A DNA stretch of 64,000 nucleotides. Source: Escherichia coli. Its GTDB lineage: Bacteria; Pseudomonadota; Gammaproteobacteria; Enterobacterales; Enterobacteriaceae. Below the pieces are notes generated by a model. It was given only the letters and a program-made list of their open reading frames with translations, was not told the DNA's origin and did not search any database. Made by a program: the position numbers and the translations under genes. Positions 16,472-61,726 of the stretch are shown piece after piece. The stretch is from the NCBI RefSeq assembly GCF_024298765.1, contig NZ_CP101210.1; one strand, given 5' to 3'. Each line of letters begins with the position of its first letter. Position 1 is the first letter of the stretch.

Positions 16472-16548
16472 GCATCCGTAGCTCAGCTGGATAGAGTACT
16501 CGGCTACGAACCGAGCGGTCGGAGGTTCGAATCCTCCCGGATGCACCA
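16472..16548 (+). tRNA. argV: tRNA-Arg (anticodon ACG), copy 1
   Basis: 77-nt GCATCCGTAGCTCAGCTGGATAGAGTACTCGGCTACGAACCGAGCGGTCGGAGGTTCGAATCCTCCCGGATGCACCA. Confidence 0.93.
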
Positions 16549-16746
16549 TATTCTACGTACCTTCAGCGATGAAGGTATGGAAGAGGTGGCGGTAATAACC
16601 GCAGGCACCAGGGAGGATAACGTTGCTTTAGCAACGGCCCGAAGGGCGAGCCGCAAGGCGAGTAATCCTCCCGGATGCACCATCTCTTACTTGATAGGGC
16701 TTTAGTAGCGGTATCAAAAAATCTGCAGTAAAGTAAGTTTCCCGAT
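16549..16746 (+). repeat. tRNA-cluster spacer repeat ending in a duplicated tRNA-Arg 3' end
   Basis: Hairpins cttcagcgatgaag and gttgctttagcaac, then cctcccggatgcacca without a preceding tRNA body; near-identical copy at 17103-17236. Confidence 0.7.
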
Positions 16747-44932: not shown

Positions 44933-46009
<1,077 letters not shown>

Positions 46010-46440
46010 TTACATATTGTTTTCTTATTGCGATCAAAAACAACAAATTAATAACAAATAATGTGAGGGATAAGAATTGGGTTGAAAGGAAATGAATAAT
46101 TAAAACAATATATTAAGTGTGCTTATACTCTTTTTCGAACTGGTGGCATTTGTTTAAATGCTATTTAAACTGCTTTTCCAGAGTTCAACTTACTGAGTTC
46201 CGTGTCGACTAATGTGAGTAAGATCAATCGCATCCAACCTATGTTACTTGATGGAATCGATAACAATATTAATGAATATACAGATTCCGGGAAGGCTGGC
46301 TATGGGGGCAAATTATTCTCTTTCTGGCAACGGGTAAATAACAGTGACCATTTGTCGAGAAGCTGATACTGAGCTGAGGGATACTGTATATGTCTGGACT
46401 GTAATTGGATGAATTCTATTCAGGGCGGGTCAGGACCAAT

Positions 46441-46466
46441 AAAAAAGCCCGCATCAGCGGGCTTTA
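46441..46466 (-). terminator. Rho-independent terminator (reverse strand)
   Basis: Hairpin aagcccgc-atca-gcgggctt preceded by A6 on the top strand (T6 after the hairpin on the reverse strand). Confidence 0.6.
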
Positions 46467-46592
46467 ATGTCATAGGGAGTCGCGACTCCGTTGCGTATCC
46501 TTTTTTGTCTCCTCACCGTCTGGTCGGTGTCCTGCTGAGACTTATAACTTCCTGTTTTTGTTGGTGTAGTCCTTACACCGTCCAATCATGAT

Positions 46593-46624
46593 TGGTGGAG
46601 CTGGCGGGAGTTGAACCCGTGTCC
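46593..46624 (-). other. att core: duplicated 3' end of tmRNA (ssrA), 32 nt, no tmRNA body
   Basis: Reverse strand reads GGACACGGGTTCAACTCCCGCCAGCTCCACCA, one mismatch to the remembered E. coli ssrA 3' terminus; upstream sequence does not continue as ssrA. Confidence 0.7.
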
Positions 46625-47050
46625 ATAGTTATGTAATTCATTGAATTTAAATAGCCAAATATTGTTGATTTTACAAGCGGCTCTTTTGCGGAACTTTTTC
46701 TGTCCTGTTACTGTCTTACTATTTATTTTAAAATAGTTTCATTTGGAATTAATGGTTTGTGGTTGCAGTTTCGGAGATAGATAGCATTTTTTGCTAAAAA
46801 ATATTTTTATAAAAAATGTGTGTAAAAATGATGTTATGCACAGATTTATGCACAGAGGCTTTGTGATAAACCAGATTGTTTTGGATAAGTTTGTTTTTTT
46901 GTGATTTGTCAACAATATTATTGACTCTTGTTACTAAAGTGAGTGTTTTCTAAGGTGGTCAGAAGTTGTCCCTTCATGTAATCTTATTAGCCATAAAGAA
47001 CAAAAAATAATTCAACATCATTACCAACTATTTGTAAGATAAGGTTTTTA

Positions 47051-47866
47051 ATGTTGCAGCCAGCAAAAAAAGCATCAGTTATTAGCGCGCGGCTAACGAA
47101 ATACCTCAAAGATGGAGTGAGGATTGATGACTTTAGCTTTAGAAGGATGTTACGTGAGATTGAAGCACTTAGAGATCCTGTCTCTGAGGACTATCTTTTA
47201 GCGTTGGTCTATGGTGCACATGGCCAAGTGAATGAGGCGATAGGCTTCTTTGAGCGTTCCTTGCAGGTATGCCATAATGAGGTTGTTGCAAAGAATTTTC
47301 TTGTTTTCTTGTCAGATTACGGTACGTTGAAGAAAAGCTTTGAAACAAGCATTAAGCTTGCTGAAAGCTTCATATCCCCGTTTATTTATCTTCAAGCTTA
47401 TGAAAACTCCCTCTTTATGGGGAAGATGGCGTTGGCGGAGAAGTATTTCCAGTCATACTCTAAATTGTTCGGAGATAAGGAGCCTGAAAAAATGGACAAC
47501 AATCTTGATGAAGTTGTTTCCCAGGTCGAATCCTTTAAGCAACGTGCCGATCTTTCTGGTTTAGAATATGAACTTATTTTCAATAATGTAGCCAATGTCA
47601 TGGATTCTCAGAAGGTTCATCTTTCGGGAATGCGTTTTTATAATATTTCGGAAGAGAAAGTGAATGCGATTGTATTCATGACAAAGTCTTCTGATGCTGA
47701 ACAAATCGCTGATATGAATATTGAGCTTGCTTTTTCAATGGCTGAGCACGATTGTTTAGTCGGTAAAGATTTTGCTGTTTGGTTTGAATGTAAAGACACA
47801 CATATTGAGCAGAATGCTATCTCCGAATTAGGTCTGATTACCCGGAGGGTTGCACATGCCGGTTAA
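47051..47866 (+). CDS. Hypothetical protein, gene 1 of a two-gene cargo operon between att core and int
   Basis: 271-aa ORF, about 40 percent GC by eye, no TM, no recognizable catalytic motif; stop overlaps the start of the next ORF. Confidence 0.6.
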   Translation: MLQPAKKASVISARLTKYLKDGVRIDDFSFRRMLREIEALRDPVSEDYLLALVYGAHGQVNEAIGFFERSLQVCHNEVVAKNFLVFLSDYGTLKKSFETSIKLAESFISPFIYLQAYENSLFMGKMALAEKYFQSYSKLFGDKEPEKMDNNLDEVVSQVESFKQRADLSGLEYELIFNNVANVMDSQKVHLSGMRFYNISEEKVNAIVFMTKSSDAEQIADMNIELAFSMAEHDCLVGKDFAVWFECKDTHIEQNAISELGLITRRVAHAG

Positions 47867-48239
47867 TAGTCAAGATTTTCTCGGTTTTGCAAAAGACTGT
47901 CATCAACGTAATGACGAAATCGGCTATCGAAATGCTATAGCAAGATCCTACTATGGCGCTTACCATCATGTCTTGCCTTGTATGGTAAACGGGCCGAAAG
48001 ACAGTCATCAGGGGCTAATCAATTATTTGCAGGGCGATGCTTCAAGAGGAAGTGAAGTATATGAAGCTAGATATCTAAAAGGGATTAGTTTTATCCTGAG
48101 TCAACTTAAAGCTCAGAGGATTGTTGCAGACTATCGACTTGATCAATCGGTCACTTCTAAACAGTCTGAAGTTGCGATTCTAACAACTGAGAGGCTCTTT
48201 GCTAAGTGTACGGAAATGCTTAAATCGAGAGCCTCCTAA
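47856..48239 (+). CDS. Hypothetical protein, gene 2 of the cargo operon (unverified HEPN-like R-x6-H motif)
   Basis: ATG at 47856 preceded by SD ggaggg; about 127 aa; motif RSYYGAYHH; terminator hairpin aaagccacttaagtggcttttttt immediately after. Confidence 0.55.
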   Translation: MPVNSQDFLGFAKDCHQRNDEIGYRNAIARSYYGAYHHVLPCMVNGPKDSHQGLINYLQGDASRGSEVYEARYLKGISFILSQLKAQRIVADYRLDQSVTSKQSEVAILTTERLFAKCTEMLKSRAS

Positions 48240-48252
48240 TTGATAAAGCCAC

Positions 48253-49425
48253 TTAAGTGGCTTTTTTTGTGATATTGCTGGTCGTATTACCGTCATATTC
48301 CTTTAAATATAAACCATAATGACGAAATAACATTTCCGGCCCTTTATGCCCCATTTGAGCTGCAAGCCAAAACAGGTTTGCTCCCCGGCTGATATGGCGG
48401 GTGGCGAATGTATGCCTAGTTTGATATGGATTTCTGTAACGAATACCTGCTTTTCGCAATGTTGGCACCCATGCTTTTTTCCTGATTGCATCAGCACTTG
48501 CCCAAGGCTTATTGGTCTTTGGATCTTCAAAGACAGTAGTATCCTTCATGAATGTAAATGGCTTCTGATTTATCAGCGCCAACATTGCCTCTTCTGTCAG
48601 TTCAACTTTCCGAGTACCTGCTTTTGTCTTTGTCCCTTTGATAACACCGACAACACTTGCGCTCTGGACATGGGCAGTTTTTCCAACAAAGTCGATATCA
48701 CGCCATCGAAGGGCACATAATTCAGAACTACGCAGGCCTGTATGTATAGCGAACCGGAACAGATTTTCCCATTGTTTGTTTCCGGCTGCTGCTAGTAATG
48801 CATCAACTTCTGCTGGTGATAGCGGATCAACTACGTAGCTGCTTTCTGCTTCTGACTTATCACTTTGGTAGCGCGAAGCTGTTACTAACGATACGGGGTT
48901 AATTTGAAGTACCCCATCGGTCACGGCTTCATCAAGTGCTGACCGCAGGAAAGATAACTGGTTGCGAATTGTTTTTAAGGTCGTTTTCTGATTTTGAATC
49001 CACGCTTTCAGGGTTGCTGGTGTTAATTCACTTGCAGGGCAAATGTGAAGTGAGGCTAACGCACTACGGCATTTTTTATAGCCACCAATCGTAGAGGGTG
49101 AAAGTTTTCTTGTTTCGCAGATTTCAAGATATTCGTCCAGGTACATCTTTACCGTTTTGCCTGCAGCAGCATTACCAAAAATTTTCAAACGAGCAGAACG
49201 GGGAAAATATTCTGCATAAATGAATGTTCCCCTTTCGATCTTATTATGGATTTCGCCGAGTGTACGCTCGGCGTATTTAATGTTCTTTGGTGTTACTTCC
49301 AGATTGGAAAGCGGCTCACGACATCTAACTCCTTTGTAGGTGAAAGTTATATTGATCGTTTCTCCCTGGCGGTGTTTCCTGATTGTTACGCCGCGCGGTA
49401 GTTTGAGCAGTTTTGTCTGGCCCAT
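48253..49425 (-). CDS. int: Phage integrase (tyrosine recombinase)
   Basis: 390-aa ORF with N-terminal arm-binding-like domain and C-terminal catalytic region (RHTFATRH ... LFRHYGLY). Confidence 0.9.
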   Translation of the reverse strand: MGQTKLLKLPRGVTIRKHRQGETINITFTYKGVRCREPLSNLEVTPKNIKYAERTLGEIHNKIERGTFIYAEYFPRSARLKIFGNAAAGKTVKMYLDEYLEICETRKLSPSTIGGYKKCRSALASLHICPASELTPATLKAWIQNQKTTLKTIRNQLSFLRSALDEAVTDGVLQINPVSLVTASRYQSDKSEAESSYVVDPLSPAEVDALLAAAGNKQWENLFRFAIHTGLRSSELCALRWRDIDFVGKTAHVQSASVVGVIKGTKTKAGTRKVELTEEAMLALINQKPFTFMKDTTVFEDPKTNKPWASADAIRKKAWVPTLRKAGIRYRNPYQTRHTFATRHISRGANLFWLAAQMGHKGPEMLFRHYGLYLKEYDGNTTSNITKKAT

Positions 49426-49592
49426 TTTGCAACCTCACTAAGATCAATCCACCTCTCCTTAACGCCTTCAACCTTTAAAACCTGAACACCTTCACGCCAA
49501 ACACCGCGCTGTACACGTTTGTTTATTGCTTCAGGAGTTTCGCCAGTTTCTTTGCAATAAGTTGAGATAGGAACACAATCGAGGTTCAGCAT
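49386..49592 (-). CDS. Excisionase-like small DNA-binding protein
   Basis: Small ORF overlapping the int start; start placed at MLNLD with SD GGAG; position typical for xis. Confidence 0.5.
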   Translation of the reverse strand: MLNLDCVPISTYCKETGETPEAINKRVQRGVWREGVQVLKVEGVKERWIDLSEVAKWARQNCSNYRAA

Positions 49593-49633
49593 ACGTTTCT
49601 CCATTATCCCGTCTGCACACGGGAGCAACATTA

Positions 49634-50524
49634 TTAACGAATAGTGTCGTTACTTTGAAGTACAGCAAATGCCATTAATACTTCTAAAGTATATCTTCTA
49701 TAAAATTTAACAAAACCAACATAGAAAACATAGACGAAGAAAAAGCTAAGCATTATTGAAAGTAAACTATAAAGATAATCACTATGAGTACATAATCGAT
49801 AAATAAAGGTTGGAACTGATACCCAAAATGAAATTATAAAGATTAAACATATGTTTCTGCAAAAACCATATAATGCAACATAGTTTTGAATTTTTGTTTG
49901 ATGTTGTTTTGAAAACTCATAAACATAATGATATGCCAATCTGAAGAGATCATCATCAAGTCCGTTTTTATCTTGTAATAATTGGCGATTTGTTATGAAC
50001 TTTTTCTCATAACCTTCTTTGATCATTAACCATGTTGTATTAGCTAAATGAAATGGTAGAGATTGAGAATAACATAGTTTTTGTGTTATAAAATCCCATA
50101 GTATTATTGGGCATAATACGCATTTGATTATGCGATTCTTTATTTTTGTTTTTTTATCAGCGCTTCTCTCATCGCATGATGGGCTACAAATGCTTTCTGA
50201 GGTATCTATCAATTTTTTAAATAGATATTTGGAAGGATATCCTAATTCTTTATTCATGTATTTTTCGATAAAAAATGCTGACGTGATAGAAATAAAATGT
50301 CCAGCTATATAAGATATAATAACTATTGAAGCGTAGTTCAAAATGCCAAAGATTTGACTTTGACCTCTGAGCAATTCACTTAAGTCAATAACAATATCTA
50401 GATCGAATGTCAAACCACAGAAATACATTAATAGGATAAAAAAACCACCTGGTATTAAATATCCAAGAAAGTCATAGAATGAGAATGGATTTTGATTCAT
50501 TGTTGCTCTCCAATAATTTTTCAA
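49634..50524 (-). CDS. Hypothetical polytopic membrane protein (very AT-rich cargo gene)
   Basis: 296-aa ORF with hydrophobic segments at both ends; roughly 30 percent GC by eye; sits between xis and the YfdR-like gene. Confidence 0.6.
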   Translation of the reverse strand: MKNYWRATMNQNPFSFYDFLGYLIPGGFFILLMYFCGLTFDLDIVIDLSELLRGQSQIFGILNYASIVIISYIAGHFISITSAFFIEKYMNKELGYPSKYLFKKLIDTSESICSPSCDERSADKKTKIKNRIIKCVLCPIILWDFITQKLCYSQSLPFHLANTTWLMIKEGYEKKFITNRQLLQDKNGLDDDLFRLAYHYVYEFSKQHQTKIQNYVALYGFCRNICLIFIISFWVSVPTFIYRLCTHSDYLYSLLSIMLSFFFVYVFYVGFVKFYRRYTLEVLMAFAVLQSNDTIR

Positions 50525-52971: not shown

Positions 52972-53625
52972 TCAAAAATCCATTATTACTTGTTTGACAA
53001 GACCAACTATTCTGCAGTTCTCACCGCATTCAATAGTTTTATAGTTAGGATTTAGTGGGACGAGATACCTGTTCGGCCAGTCCTCAACAAATTTTTTGAG
53101 TGTCGCTTCTTGCCCACCATTGATATGGGCAACAACGATTTTTCCGTTAATACACTCTGTATCAATAATATCTGGCTCTACGATAACGATAGAACCTTCT
53201 GGTATCGATGGTGAGCCGAGGGGATTGGTCATTGAATCACCACGGACCCGTAGTGCAAATGCCATTTCTGATACAAGGGCGGTAGTATAAACCCACTCTT
53301 CAGCATCTTCTTTCCTGACACCAGGCTCCGTCATTGTCCATGAACCCGCCTGAACCCACGAGATGAGGGGGACTTTTTTAACTGCGAATATTTCAGGTTT
53401 TAGATTTATCTTTGGTTCAGGCGAGCCTTTTCCGCTAACAAGCCACAGAGGATCGCATTTAAGTGCGTTGGCTAGGGCTTGAAGGTTGGCTCCATTTGGT
53501 TGGTAGTCGTCCTTTTCCCATCCAGTAACCGTGACACGGTTCACACCAGTCAAATCAGCCAGTGCTTGTTGTGTCAGGTTCAGTTCTTTTCGCCTTTGGC
53601 GAATACGATCACTCATGTTCATCAT
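52972..53625 (-). CDS. CI-like prophage repressor (HTH + S24 LexA-type peptidase domain)
   Basis: 217-aa ORF; N-terminal HTH (LNLTQQALADLTGVNRVTVTGWE), C-terminal GDSM serine motif; divergent from the cro-like gene. Confidence 0.88.
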   Translation of the reverse strand: MMNMSDRIRQRRKELNLTQQALADLTGVNRVTVTGWEKDDYQPNGANLQALANALKCDPLWLVSGKGSPEPKINLKPEIFAVKKVPLISWVQAGSWTMTEPGVRKEDAEEWVYTTALVSEMAFALRVRGDSMTNPLGSPSIPEGSIVIVEPDIIDTECINGKIVVAHINGGQEATLKKFVEDWPNRYLVPLNPNYKTIECGENCRIVGLVKQVIMDF

Positions 53626-57819: not shown

Positions 57820-58815
57820 GTGACCGTGAGAGCACTACTGACCCCTGAAATTGCCCCGCGTATGGGGATCGTATTGTTCAGACCAGGTTCAGAGCTGATG
57901 CCCTTGTTTATGCAGGGGCGTGTCCTGCTGGAGCCTGAGCCGGAACGTTATTCATCTTTCGCCAGTGGTGCCGTTCCGGCGGCATCACAACCGCTGGCGG
58001 ATGATCCTGCCGTTCGGGCCGTGTTCCGCAATGAGGCAGTGATCCGTCGTGCTGGTGGCGTGGAATGTCTTGAAAGCTGGTTACTTCGTGAAAAAGGCTG
58101 CCAGTGGCCTCATTCCGGCTGGCACAGCGAGAACATGACAACAATGCGACACGCTCCGGGCGCAATCCGTCTGTGCTGGCACTGCGATAACCAGCTGCGC
58201 GATCAGTTCACGGAACGGCTGGAATCAATGGCAACGGATAACTGTGCCCGCTGGGTGTTGTCTGTTGTGCGTCGGGATCTCGGTTTTGATGACAGTCATG
58301 TTGTGACAATGCCGGAACTGTGCTGGTGGCTGATTCGTAATGATCTGGCGGATGCCTTACCGGAAAGTGCAGCCCGTAAGGCACTGAGATTACCGAAGCC
58401 TGTTGTGCCGTCTGTTACCCGGGAAAGTGACCTTGTGCCTTCGGTTCCTGCCACCAGCATCATCCAGGATAAGGCGAAAAAGGTGCTGGCGCTGAAAGTG
58501 GATCCGGAGTCGCCGGAGTCTTTTATGTTACGCCCAAAACGTCGCCGCTGGGTTAATGAAAAGTACACGCGCTGGGTTAAGACACAGCCGTGTGCATGTT
58601 GTGGAAAGCCCGCTGATGATCCCCACCACCTGATAGGTCACGGTCAGGGTGGAATGGGAACAAAAGCGCATGACCTCTTTGTGTTGCCTTTGTGCAGAAA
58701 GCATCACGACGAGCTGCATGCGGATACCGTGGCATTTGAAGAGAAGTATGGCTCTCAGCTGGAGCTGATATTTCGTTTTATCGATCGTGCGCTGGCAATT
58801 GGCGTATTGGCGTAA
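57820..58815 (+). CDS. DUF968-family phage protein (YdfU-like)
   Basis: 331-aa ORF with GTG start; C-terminal Cys/His-rich region (QPCACCGKPADDPHHLIGHG ... CRKHHDELH); usual position between rusA and Q. Confidence 0.65.
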   Translation: MTVRALLTPEIAPRMGIVLFRPGSELMPLFMQGRVLLEPEPERYSSFASGAVPAASQPLADDPAVRAVFRNEAVIRRAGGVECLESWLLREKGCQWPHSGWHSENMTTMRHAPGAIRLCWHCDNQLRDQFTERLESMATDNCARWVLSVVRRDLGFDDSHVVTMPELCWWLIRNDLADALPESAARKALRLPKPVVPSVTRESDLVPSVPATSIIQDKAKKVLALKVDPESPESFMLRPKRRRWVNEKYTRWVKTQPCACCGKPADDPHHLIGHGQGGMGTKAHDLFVLPLCRKHHDELHADTVAFEEKYGSQLELIFRFIDRALAIGVLA

Positions 58816-58828
58816 GTGGAGAACGAGC

Positions 58829-59581
58829 ATGAACCTTGAAGCCTTACCAAAATATTACTCCCCAAAATCTCCAAAATTGAGCGATGACGCACCGGCGACA
58901 GGCTCTGGTGGTTTAACAATTACGGATGTAATGGCTGCGCAGGGGATGGTGCAGTCGAAAGCACCGCTTGGGTTTGCCTTATTCCTGGCAAAAGTTGGTG
59001 TTCAGGATCCTCAGTTTGCGATTGAAGGTCTGCTCAATTACGCGATGGCACTGGATAACCCGACATTGAATAAATTGAGTGAAGAAACCCGGCTACAGAT
59101 CATTCCTTACCTTGTGAATTTTGCCTTTGCTGATTATTCCAGGTCTGCGGCAAGTAAGGCTCGCTGTGAGCATTGTGCTGGTACTGGATTTCATAATGTA
59201 TTGCGCGAGGTGGTGAAACACTCCAGAAGCGGGGAATCTGTTATCAAGGAAGAGTGGGTGAAGGAACTATGTCAGCATTGTCATGGTAAGGGAGAAGTCA
59301 GCACAGCGTGCAGAGGGTGTAAGGGTAAAGGTATTGTCCTGGATGAAAAAAGAACCCGGCTTCATGGTACGCCTGTTTATAAGATTTGTGGGCGTTGCAA
59401 TGGTAACCGTTTTAGCCGTTTACCAACCACACTGGCGCGGCATCATGTCCAGAAGCTGGTACCAGACCTGACGGATTATCAGTGGTACAAAGGATATGCA
59501 GATGTCATTGATAAACTGGTTACAAAGTGCTGGCAGGAAGAAGCATATGCAGAGACACAATTGAGAAAAGTGACAAGATAA
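58829..59581 (+). CDS. Late gene antiterminator Q
   Basis: Start at MNLEALPKYY with SD ggaga; zinc-finger-like CEHCAGTG ... CQHCHGKG ... CRGCKGKG ... CGRCNG; followed by late promoter/terminator region. Confidence 0.8.
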   Translation: MNLEALPKYYSPKSPKLSDDAPATGSGGLTITDVMAAQGMVQSKAPLGFALFLAKVGVQDPQFAIEGLLNYAMALDNPTLNKLSEETRLQIIPYLVNFAFADYSRSAASKARCEHCAGTGFHNVLREVVKHSRSGESVIKEEWVKELCQHCHGKGEVSTACRGCKGKGIVLDEKRTRLHGTPVYKICGRCNGNRFSRLPTTLARHHVQKLVPDLTDYQWYKGYADVIDKLVTKCWQEEAYAETQLRKVTR

Positions 59582-60068: not shown

Positions 60069-60455
60069 ATGTCCGATCCGATTTCCGGTACTGGGCTGGC
60101 TGGTGGTGCCCTGACGGGTGCCAGTGTTTATGGACTGCTGACCGGAACTGATTACGGCGTTGTATTTGGCGCATTTGCAGGGGCTGTATTCTACATAGCA
60201 ACAGCAGCAGATCTGAGTGCATCGCGTCGACTGGCATATTTTATCGTGTCATATATTGCCGGGATTCTTTGCTCTGGGTTGGTTGGCTCCAAGCTGGCGA
60301 ACTTGACCGGATACAGTGATAAACCTCTGGATGCTATTGGTGCCGTAATCGTCTCTGCTTTAGCCGTTAAAATCCTGACGTTCCTGAATAATCAGGATAT
60401 CGGCTCGCTGGTGGCGCTCATAACGCGCCGGGGAGGTTCAGGTGGAGCTAAATGA
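60069..60455 (+). CDS. Putative holin (multi-TM small membrane protein)
   Basis: 128-aa ORF with about three hydrophobic helices; first gene of the lysis cassette; SD agaggggg. Confidence 0.6.
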   Translation: MSDPISGTGLAGGALTGASVYGLLTGTDYGVVFGAFAGAVFYIATAADLSASRRLAYFIVSYIAGILCSGLVGSKLANLTGYSDKPLDAIGAVIVSALAVKILTFLNNQDIGSLVALITRRGGSGGAK

Positions 60456-60723
60456 CCCGACAGCAACTATAAATGCGCTGTTATGTGCTTGTGTTGTTAT
60501 TACTCTGATGTTTTATCGTCGTGGTGATTCGCGGCATCGTCCTTGGGTTTCACGTTTAGCCTGGCTGATTACTGTTACATACAGTGCTGTTCCGTTGGCC
60601 TATCTCTGTGGGATTTATCCTCATTCCTCATGGCCCATTATCGTGGCGAACACTATTTTTCTTTCCGTGCTGGTGGCCGTCAGAGGCAACGTTGCACGTC
60701 TGGTTGATCATCTGAGGCACTAA
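60442..60723 (+). CDS. Putative second holin/antiholin-like membrane protein
   Basis: 93-aa ORF with three hydrophobic segments; overlaps neighbours at both ends. Confidence 0.55.
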   Translation: MELNDPTATINALLCACVVITLMFYRRGDSRHRPWVSRLAWLITVTYSAVPLAYLCGIYPHSSWPIIVANTIFLSVLVAVRGNVARLVDHLRH

Positions 60724-61337
60724 TGAACCAACAATTATTTCAAAAGGCGGCTGGTATTAGCGCCGGGCTGGCTGCGCGCTGGTTTCCGCACATTGATGCG
60801 GCGATGAAGGAATTCGGCATTACAGCACCAGCGGATCAGGCAATGTTTATCGCTCAGGTAGGCCATGAGTCGATGGGGTTTAGCGCCGTAGTTGAAAATT
60901 TTAACTACACACCATCTGCGCTGGTGGCGACGTTCGGAAAGAGGATCACACAGCAGCAGGCTGATGCCCTTGGCAGAACATCCGGACATGCAGCTCGTCA
61001 GGATGCTATTGCCAATCTGGTGTATAGCAACCGACTGGGTAACAAAGCACCAGGTGATGGCTGGAAATATCGTGGTAGAGGATTAATTCAAATCACTGGC
61101 CTCCATAATTATCGCATCTGTGGCGCGGCGCTGAAGTTAGATCTGGTGACTTCACCTGAACAACTGGAACAGGAACTACAGGCTGCGCGCTCAGCTGCAT
61201 GGTTCTACACCTCTAAAGGTTGCATGATCTACGGTGCCGATATTAACCGTGTTACGCGCATCATTAACGGCGGTCTGAACGGTATTGAGGATCGTAAGGT
61301 CCGATACAACAAGGCGCGGGCGGCGCTGCTGGTATGA
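60723..61337 (+). CDS. Endolysin, glycoside hydrolase family 19 (chitinase-like)
   Basis: 204-aa ORF; GH19-like catalytic region (FIAQVGHESMGF ... YRGRGLIQITG); ATGA overlap with upstream gene. Confidence 0.8.
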   Translation: MNQQLFQKAAGISAGLAARWFPHIDAAMKEFGITAPADQAMFIAQVGHESMGFSAVVENFNYTPSALVATFGKRITQQQADALGRTSGHAARQDAIANLVYSNRLGNKAPGDGWKYRGRGLIQITGLHNYRICGAALKLDLVTSPEQLEQELQAARSAAWFYTSKGCMIYGADINRVTRIINGGLNGIEDRKVRYNKARAALLV

Positions 61338-61726
61338 AGATGAGTTATTGGGCGCTCATTTTAACGTTTATTGCTTGTGTCGCTGGTGGTCTTGTCTGGT
61401 CAGCGAATCACTATCATGGAAAGTTTCTGGAGGAGCAGAAGCGTGCTGATGCTGCGGAACAGCGAGCTGATTCTACTGAGGCTATCACCGCGAATGTTCT
61501 GCGTACTATGGCAATAACGAACATCATTCAGGAGGCGAATCAACATGCAAAACAGCAGATCGCACTGGAGTCACAGAGAACCCAGGAAGATATCAAAGTG
61601 GCTGTTGCGGATGATGATTGTGCTTCACGTCCTGTGCCTGCTGCCGCTGCTGACCGGTTGCGGAAGTACGCGAACAGTTTACGTCCAGGTTCCGGTAGTT
61701 CCGTTACCAGCCAGCCTGACGGCTGA
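61334..61726 (+). CDS. Rz-like inner-membrane spanin (i-spanin)
   Basis: 130-aa ORF; N-terminal TM then coiled-coil periplasmic domain; follows the endolysin. Confidence 0.75.
   Translation: MKMSYWALILTFIACVAGGLVWSANHYHGKFLEEQKRADAAEQRADSTEAITANVLRTMAITNIIQEANQHAKQQIALESQRTQEDIKVAVADDDCASRPVPAAAADRLRKYANSLRPGSGSSVTSQPDG

Follow-up and report, generated by a model that had tools for sequence, protein, structure and literature searches.

HEPN-fold proteins rank with the most frequent effectors of bacterial immunity and of toxin-antitoxin (TA) systems. For the AF0298/UPF0332 clade of these proteins, to our knowledge, no activity has been demonstrated; the clade is known only as the partner of nucleotidyltransferases, and we know of no AF0298/UPF0332-type HEPN that has been proven to be an RNase. 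The analysis presented here concerns a cassette of two overlapping genes, referred to as gene A and gene B, in a lambdoid prophage within a 64-kb window of the chromosome of Escherichia coli (the window is the whole stretch of DNA analysed, and all positions are counted within it). Gene B encodes a HEPN-fold protein of the AF0298/UPF0332 (HEPN-T) type, and gene A encodes a protein with a tetratricopeptide repeat (TPR) array. The pair is assigned here to the HEPN-based conflict modules of two genes, among which its partner is new, and is not regarded as categorically new. On balance, it is read here as a TA-like abortive-infection module, that is a phage-defence module, consisting of a HEPN effector and a TPR sensor or antitoxin.

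HepT, a HEPN toxin with the canonical Rx4H motif, is neutralised enzymatically by AMPylation of a nearby tyrosine residue. In comparison with the HepT-MntA systems of type II/VII (Shewanella SO_3166/SO_3165; 5YEP, 6M6W, 7AE2), gene A possesses neither the nucleotidyltransferase fold nor the GS...DxD motif nor any invariant residue. Searches of Pfam, NCBIfam and the PDB sequences gave no nucleotidyltransferase match for gene A, so that the partner in this cassette is not a nucleotidyltransferase and the pair does not belong to the HEPN-MNT (minimal nucleotidyltransferase) systems. AF0298/UPF0332-type HEPNs (HEPN-T, PF05168; 2HSB, TT1696 1UFB, ST0689 1WOL) typically occur beside an MNT and are found mostly in archaea and thermophiles (PMC3710099). 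Gene B is only about 16% identical to these proteins, and its locus differs from theirs in the partner, which is a TPR plus alpha/beta protein of 250-277 aa, and in the hosts, which are gamma-proteobacterial prophages. RnlA-RnlB and LsoA-LsoB of E. coli combine large multi-domain toxins that carry the canonical motif with small antitoxins, whereas the present cassette has a minimal HEPN protein and a large partner.

A HEPN effector with an alpha-solenoid repeat partner also occurs in other conflict systems. LA2681 HEPN domains are fused to, or form an operon with, TPR proteins, and AbiU2 is found in an operon with a Sel1-repeat protein, both with an Rx4-6H motif (PMC3710099). According to their descriptions, these are other HEPN clades in which Rx4-6H is conserved, and membership of gene B in either of them is disfavoured because its motif differs. 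With the Avs/STAND NTPases and Dsr1 the cassette shares a TPR array as the likely module for recognition of phage proteins (PMC12803255; PMC9122126), but here an NTPase or oligomerisation module is absent, and sensor and effector are separate small proteins and not one fusion.

No publication was found on the A and B proteins, on c3204/c3205 or on a TPR-HEPN pair; the prophage defence screen of Brenes & Laub 2025 (Cell Host Microbe 33:1004), in which E. coli prophages were reportedly screened for defence systems, lay outside this search. A TPR+HEPN pair is likewise absent from Rousset 2022 and from a domain-centric screen published in NAR in 2026. The accessions of A and B do not occur in the portion of the DefensePredictor supplementary material covered here (PMC13092281). 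Candidate DS-28 from the same source was rejected as a counterpart, as it contains another HEPN (RNSVAH motif, 163 aa) in the opposite gene order and with an unrelated partner. NCBIfam holds no model for either protein, the only match being a spurious one to VapB15 at 0.047, and in PHROGs both match families of unknown function only. A direct PADLOC search of the two proteins returned weak HEPN_IX and oMTase matches only. This check had been proposed in an earlier note made from the sequence of the window, and no system model matched beyond weak HEPN similarity (the models date from 2023). The cassette is probably an undescribed and unnamed system.

The cassette comprises the following features:

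47051-47866, plus strand: gene A, 271 aa, the proposed partner, antitoxin or sensor
47844-47848, plus strand: Shine-Dalgarno sequence GGAGG of gene B, read from the sequence, within the 3' end of gene A and 7 nt before the ATG of gene B
47856-48239, plus strand: gene B, 127 aa, the proposed effector (RNase or RNA/nucleotide binder)
48245-48264, plus strand: hairpin terminator (AAAGCCACTTAAGTGGCTTT, then a T-run), from a terminator scan, which ends the A-B operon

Both genes overlap by 11 nt (47856-47866). In the list of open reading frames (ORFs), gene B begins with TTG at 47850 and has 129 aa, whereas RefSeq places the start on identical DNA at ATG 47856; the latter was adopted because of the RefSeq choice and the conserved N-terminus of the homologues (MPV.S.DF). 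The terminator overlaps the stop codon of the convergent integrase gene (int) and is common to both transcription units. Altogether, the terminator scan of the region yielded 5 sites, with 1.7 expected. The GC content amounts to 0.38-0.42 in genes A and B and to 0.32-0.33 in the 5' leader, in comparison to 0.53-0.59 in the csiD/gab neighbours and 0.42-0.45 in int. The earlier note had described two co-oriented, overlapping ORFs of 271 and about 127 aa with a Shine-Dalgarno sequence and a common terminator, which have a lower GC content than their neighbours and are transcribed opposite to int from a position between the attachment (att) core and int. These coordinates and properties were all borne out: the core begins at 46593, the cassette spans 47051-48239 on the plus strand and int extends from 48253 to 49425 on the minus strand. 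Exactly the same A and B proteins are present in uropathogenic E. coli CFT073, in which the smaller one is c3205 and the prophage is located next to ssrA.

For comparison, loci were gathered with an alignment of gene B. Gene A was located immediately upstream of gene B and on the same strand in 24 of the 24 loci collected first and in 71 of 71 assessable IMG/VR loci, so that the order A-then-B, as in the generic gene arrangement of type II TA systems, is conserved in 95/95 assessable loci. The same pairing was observed for relatives of gene A at only 18-22% identity, and an overlap of 4-20 nt occurred in 11 of the 14 unique A-B pairs. The pairwise identities of A and B co-vary (Spearman 0.72, 14 unique pairs), and this co-divergence suggests that both proteins interact. 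Gene A evolved faster in 91/91 comparisons, with a mean identity of 23% in comparison to 40% for gene B. A and B are a near-obligate, translationally coupled unit.

The AlphaFold models of A and B are confident (pLDDT 92 and 95). Gene B forms a compact four-to-five-helix up-and-down bundle, which superposes on solved HEPN domains. The profile of its family matched the HEPN proteins 9xbd and 9xbc in the PDB (2.7e-5 and 1.4e-4), as well as AF0298, and a family member aligned with AF0298 and 9xbd showed the common blocks YYAMFH, His and R..[SA]DY; a source paper for 9XBD/9XBC was not found in the literature. Matches of the same profile to polyubiquitin entries of the PDB (E about 1e-10) were discarded as an artefact, being the sum of nine 25-residue repeats with an E of about 400 each. 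Relatives of gene B, which are present on 256 IMG/VR viral contigs, are labelled UPF0332 or HEPN by some sources. With the Pfam HEPN model (PF05168), gene B of the window was not matched even at E<=10, and 12 of 35 family members were matched at E<=1e-3 and 28 of 35 at E<=0.1. The match of the window protein to PADLOC was restricted to HEPN_IX and was weak (1.4e-3).

Among 35 sequences, down to 31% identity, the residues A12, E21, R25, R30, Y32, Y33, H37, P47, H51, Y57, E67, R88, D92 and Y93 are invariant. The canonical Rx4-6H site of HEPN proteins, with which the C-terminal helix pair begins, reads R88-x3-D92-Y93 in this family. In AF0298-type HEPNs, the Arg is kept, the His is replaced (often by Asp), and an upstream conserved His could form an alternative active site (PMC3710099). 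Gene B agrees with this description by virtue of R88, D92 and the more N-terminal H37 and H51. The suggestion in the earlier note that the small protein could be HEPN-like because of an R-x6-H pattern was right with regard to the fold; R30-x6-H37 is indeed invariant, but it is located in helix 2 and not at the canonical site. A divergent homologue in Yersinia phage YP3 (L031, 3501-3866; HMM E=1.6e-20), encoded between a virion structural gene and a baseplate wedge gene, has kept the R, D, Y and one His, and H37 is replaced by Leu.

Gene A consists of N-terminal helices and a TPR-like array (about residues 4-138), two long helices (145-186) and a beta-beta-alpha-beta domain (191-247). The N-terminal part shows the tandem helix-turn-helix repeats of TPR proteins, as judged from TPR profiles or structures. 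For the beta-beta-alpha-beta domain no relatives were detectable, and a Pfam search with gene A gave nothing significant. About 65 full-length relatives were present among the 50%-identity clusters. Not a single residue, polar ones included, is invariant among 67 sequences; the conserved part of the C-terminal domain consists of the helix 216-231 and the strand 242-247. Seven consecutive A's at 47065-47071 take up codons 5-7 of gene A; in a single draft assembly of E. coli (L120, about 2417-2424) there are eight A's at this site, resulting in a frameshift of gene A with an intact gene B, which could be a sequencing error or slipped-strand variation. Clusters with truncated gene A were considered as decay hinting at toxicity, and were set aside as uninformative; apart from the case with eight A's, they are contig-end or start-site artefacts.

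The cassette ranges from Escherichia to Vibrio, Aeromonas and Gilliamella and occupies at least 5 different phage positions. The position between att and a convergent integrase gene accounts for 24 of 80 IMG/VR loci and was also found in E. coli, Enterobacter and Pseudocitrobacter. Further positions are between the Q/antiterminator gene and the lysis genes, between the lysis genes and the terminase gene, and within the tail clusters of siphoviruses, as in a Serratia marcescens contig, in Klebsiella phage ST405-OXA48phi1.3 and in a Xenorhabdus prophage. In a P2-like Vibrio phage the cassette is flanked by the late-control gene and repA. Outside any recognisable prophage, it stands alone in three Gilliamella genomes between frr (rpsB-tsf-pyrH-frr) and a gene for an MFS transporter, and in Proteus hauseri it adjoins fliE/fliF. 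A-B is thus a mobile cassette carried as cargo by temperate phages, and it recurs well beyond the prophage lineage of the window. In Aeromonas veronii, likewise outside any recognisable prophage, the pair is divergent from, and abuts, the Bunzi genes BnzA/BnzB (BnzB 2.6e-67), and in Serratia it lies near a gene for an ApeA-type HEPN. One 7.5-kb contig from a Firmicutes metagenome-assembled genome labelled Sporosarcina psychrophila (L014, DYWT01000267.1) encodes a gene B product 100% identical to that of E. coli, with gene A directly upstream; almost certainly, this contig is E. coli DNA that was mis-binned or entered as a contaminant.

In the window, the cassette occupies a cargo slot delimited by the following features:

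46593-46640, minus strand: att core, consisting of a piece of the tmRNA (ssrA) 3' end, from a partial Rfam tmRNA match (E=5.7e-6)
46626-47050, plus strand: AT-rich 5' leader of 425 nt with a GC content of about 0.32, which travels with the cassette
48253-49425, minus strand: tyrosine integrase, from the ORF list and from RefSeq, which annotates identical DNA; it delimits the variable slot on the right

The att core, which the earlier note had postulated, is real: an exact 26-nt match to the tmRNA 3' end (46593-46618) occurs once in the window and 0 times in shuffled sequences, it is accompanied by the Rfam fragment, and homology breaks at the same position (46593-46625) in comparisons with SFE8, UTI89, R10 and other strains. 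In SFE8, which carries the same prophage with another left neighbour, homology begins exactly at 46593; the A-B pair is therefore located inside the prophage. The core is the left boundary of the prophage as well as of the slot. According to the alignment, the variable segment comprises 46626-48289 and has precise limits on both sides, the tmRNA core at 46593-46625 and the final int codons at 48284-48314.

The DNA from int to the excisionase gene (xis) of the window was found in 411 of 5426 complete E. coli genomes with 93-99.9% identity, and the cassette with its leader was found in only 43 E. coli genomes. In the comparison of the slot, which took in loci L032-L038, the cargo of other strains was as follows:

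EC1515: AbiLi and AbiLii (PADLOC 2.2e-99 and 6.4e-29)
0H18: DarT (2.5e-13) and a DUF6977 protein
2015C-3163: a ParA-family protein and two unknown proteins
UTI89 and PU-1: three genes, including one for a protein with a STAS-like domain
R10: one gene only, for an unknown protein of 259 aa
AR_0374: an IS4 element only

The AbiL and DarTG-like cargos share with the cassette the slot, the integrase (93-99% identity), a similar size and the two-gene format, but their proteins are unrelated to A and B, and the equivalence is one of position only. Such variability of the slot is what characterises a defence/TA hotspot, and of all the contextual evidence it lends the strongest support to the interpretation given in the earlier note, in which the pair was put forward as a candidate TA or anti-phage module. 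In qualitative terms, the association with defence genes is seen in the AbiL/DarT slot, in Bunzi and in ApeA. Cargos without strong annotation or a strong PADLOC match, such as those of UTI89, R10 and 2015C-3163, may represent additional systems that are as yet uncharacterised.

In SFE8, a second island (L001, 11816-19527) was observed between glaH and the same tmRNA-derived core. It contains an amylase pseudogene, an IS3 element, a pair annotated as 'ATP-binding protein' and 'response regulator receiver domain', a small hypothetical gene and an integrase of its own; the core of SFE8 is hence the site of two elements in tandem. In addition, the SFE8 copy of the prophage has a gene resembling kwaB of Kiwa, located between Q and the holin gene (L001, 33982-35393). 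In the window, the region from upstream of csiD to the att core (46109-46592) differs from SFE8 and contains a strong terminator-like hairpin on the minus strand (46444-46465). The hairpin lies downstream of the tmRNA-like fragment, at a distance of about 130 nt. An earlier element linked to ssrA may have left this region behind as a remnant.

The leader is present only in the 43 E. coli genomes that carry the cassette and is missing where sister prophages hold other cargo. The promoter is presumably located here. A search for a consensus sigma-70 promoter gave no call; a TGTAAYCTTA block (about 46977-46986, about 70 nt upstream of gene A), which is conserved in the att-int copies of several genera, is a possible -10 region. 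No RNA partner, as it occurs in type III TA systems, was detected in the leader by Rfam matches or as tandem repeats. Sites resembling DnaA boxes were located as follows:

46834-46842 and 46846-46854: direct repeats TTATGCACA of the DnaA-box consensus TTATNCACA, about 200 nt upstream of gene A
L002 5019/5035, L051 4022/4038, L057 4016/4032, L043 3965/3994 and L015 5048: DnaA-box-like sites in other copies of the cassette

The consensus TTATNCACA has only two matches in the window, at 46834 and 46846. Att-int copies of the cassette in other genera have two or three sites of this consensus, with inverted or direct TTATCCACA pairs at homologous positions. None was found in sister prophages with the same integrase and other cargo, nor in the copies of the cassette elsewhere in phage genomes, and for this reason the sites are probably not arm sites of this integrase. 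These repeats might serve as an operator, in DnaA-dependent control or in another role.

On the basis of these findings, the following mode of action is proposed for a TA-like defence module. Gene B would be the effector and act as an RNase, or at least as an RNA- or nucleotide-binding protein, with a putative pocket built from R88, D92 and Y93 together with the invariant His37 and His51 and not from the classical Rx4-6H motif. Gene A would be a non-enzymatic partner, whose C-terminal alpha/beta domain (216-231 and 242-247) may bind gene B and restrain it. The fast-evolving TPR array would sense a protein of the infecting phage; for TPR sensor domains that recognise phage proteins there is precedent in Avs7 and Dsr1 (PMC12803255). 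Upon infection, gene B might be released or activated, and the resulting damage to RNA could stop translation and thereby abort the infection. Such an abortive outcome would protect the population of lysogens and therefore also the resident prophage. The interpretation of the earlier note is thus partly supported: residence in the AbiL/DarT slot was confirmed, and toxicity and protection are predicted properties of the pair.

Several observations weigh against this interpretation. The canonical site of gene B reads R88-x3-D92-Y93, and the catalytic His is therefore missing; gene B may be non-catalytic for this reason and because no member of its clade is known as an RNase. A lone homologue of gene B without gene A in Yersinia phage YP3 (PV092592.1), the single exception to the pairing, is awkward for a gene B that is constitutively toxic. 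In PADLOC-DB v2.0.0, gene A and its relatives had no match, and gene B and its relatives had weak matches to HEPN_IX (6e-5 to 3e-3) and PDC-M05B (0.002). Gene A has no recognisable DNA-binding domain for autoregulation in the manner of type II TA systems, and the putative interface between A and B was deduced from conservation. Furthermore, guilt by association in cargo slots is only suggestive, because such slots also hold non-defence morons.

Among the other explanations, the most durable one is that A-B is a plain addiction-type TA system, which stabilises the prophage or the region by post-segregational killing and has no role in phage defence; it is regarded as rather unlikely. Gene order, sizes, overlap and co-divergence are all TA-like, the position beside att and int means that the cassette is lost if the element is lost, and the stand-alone chromosomal insertions resemble many TA loci. 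However, the same slot holds AbiL and DarT defence cargo, Bunzi adjoins the cassette in Aeromonas, and a TPR 'antitoxin' of 270 aa that outpaces its toxin in evolution looks like a sensor rather than a labile antitoxin. This explanation overlaps with the defence reading, because many TA systems prove to be defence systems.

It is unlikely to a slightly greater degree that gene B is a non-catalytic HEPN, that is an RNA or nucleotide binder, which serves the phage either in counter-defence, for example as a sponge for signalling nucleotides, or by regulating RNA of the host or of the phage. The missing canonical His would fit, as would the nucleotide-binding and regulatory members of the HEPN fold such as sacsin, MtlR and Roquin (PMC3710099), and the genes are phage-borne, with the solo gene B homologue of YP3 lying within a virion gene cluster. 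Against this, the invariant E21, R25, R30, H37, H51, E67, R88 and D92 exceed the usual needs of binding, an isolated cassette among housekeeping genes in Gilliamella and Proteus would have no obvious use for counter-defence, and the slot-mates are defence cargo rather than anti-defence cargo.

An accessory function outside of conflict, in lysogenic conversion or in the life cycle of the phage, with the pair modulating host physiology or the control of lysogeny, is considered improbable. Moron positions elsewhere do carry non-defence cargo as well, and the DnaA-box-like repeats of the leader could tie expression to the replication status of the host. Neither protein, however, points to metabolism, virulence or transcription control, and the architecture of a HEPN and a repeat protein is typical of conflict systems (PMC3710099). 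The idea that the two ORFs are open merely by chance in AT-rich DNA, or are remnants in decay, for which the low GC content and the annotation as 'hypothetical protein' might be quoted, can be dismissed, because both proteins have relatives across genera, conserved synteny and confidently predicted folds.

To the left of the prophage, the window contains gabDTP-lhgO-csiD(glaH), which ends at 45910, followed by AT-rich DNA. After the cassette, the genes of the prophage are arranged in the order integrase, excisionase, yfdR/Q/P-like genes, repressor, Q, holin, endolysin and Rz, of which the following, besides the integrase, were located:

49386-49631, minus strand: excisionase (PHROG excisionase)
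52972-53625: repressor, from ORFs and annotation
58787-59581: Q, from ORFs and annotation
60069-61726: holin, endolysin and Rz, from ORFs and annotation

Between the excisionase gene and yfdR, an ORF of 296 aa with a GC content of about 0.29 (49634-50524, minus strand) encodes an apparently multi-pass membrane protein. It matched phrog_12528 (unknown function, 8.8e-174) and, weakly, the PADLOC model for Csx27 (1.4e-5), a membrane protein associated with the HEPN-bearing Cas13b. With this ORF, the prophage seems to carry a second moron. Outside of the prophage, ARAGORN called a minus-strand tRNA-Arg(tcg) at 16492-16563, overlapping a plus-strand tRNA-Arg(acg) of the serV-argVYZQ cluster; since Rfam reports only the plus-strand genes, this call is probably a false positive.

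Going beyond the defence module as such, it is proposed only tentatively that the cassette represents an undescribed phage-defence family, in which a minimal, His-less HEPN of the AF0298/UPF0332 type is placed under the control of a dedicated, fast-evolving TPR sensor or antitoxin with a new C-terminal fold, in place of a nucleotidyltransferase. The cassette is common in enterobacterial prophages and pairs the AF0298/UPF0332 clade with a non-enzymatic TPR partner. Including its leader, it comprises 1.6 kb, which is small enough for direct cloning and testing. A positive result in defence would add a defence family and a new pairing of sensor and effector, and would provide a handle on an alternative active site of HEPN proteins. 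If the proposal is true, it would give the first function and regulatory logic for the large 'orphan' AF0298/UPF0332 HEPN clade, possibly with a non-canonical active site formed by Arg, Asp and Tyr plus His, and a sensor protein would prove able to take the place of the ancestral HEPN-MNT partnership altogether. The slot between core and int of this widespread integrase family is at the same time a ready-made hotspot for finding further systems.

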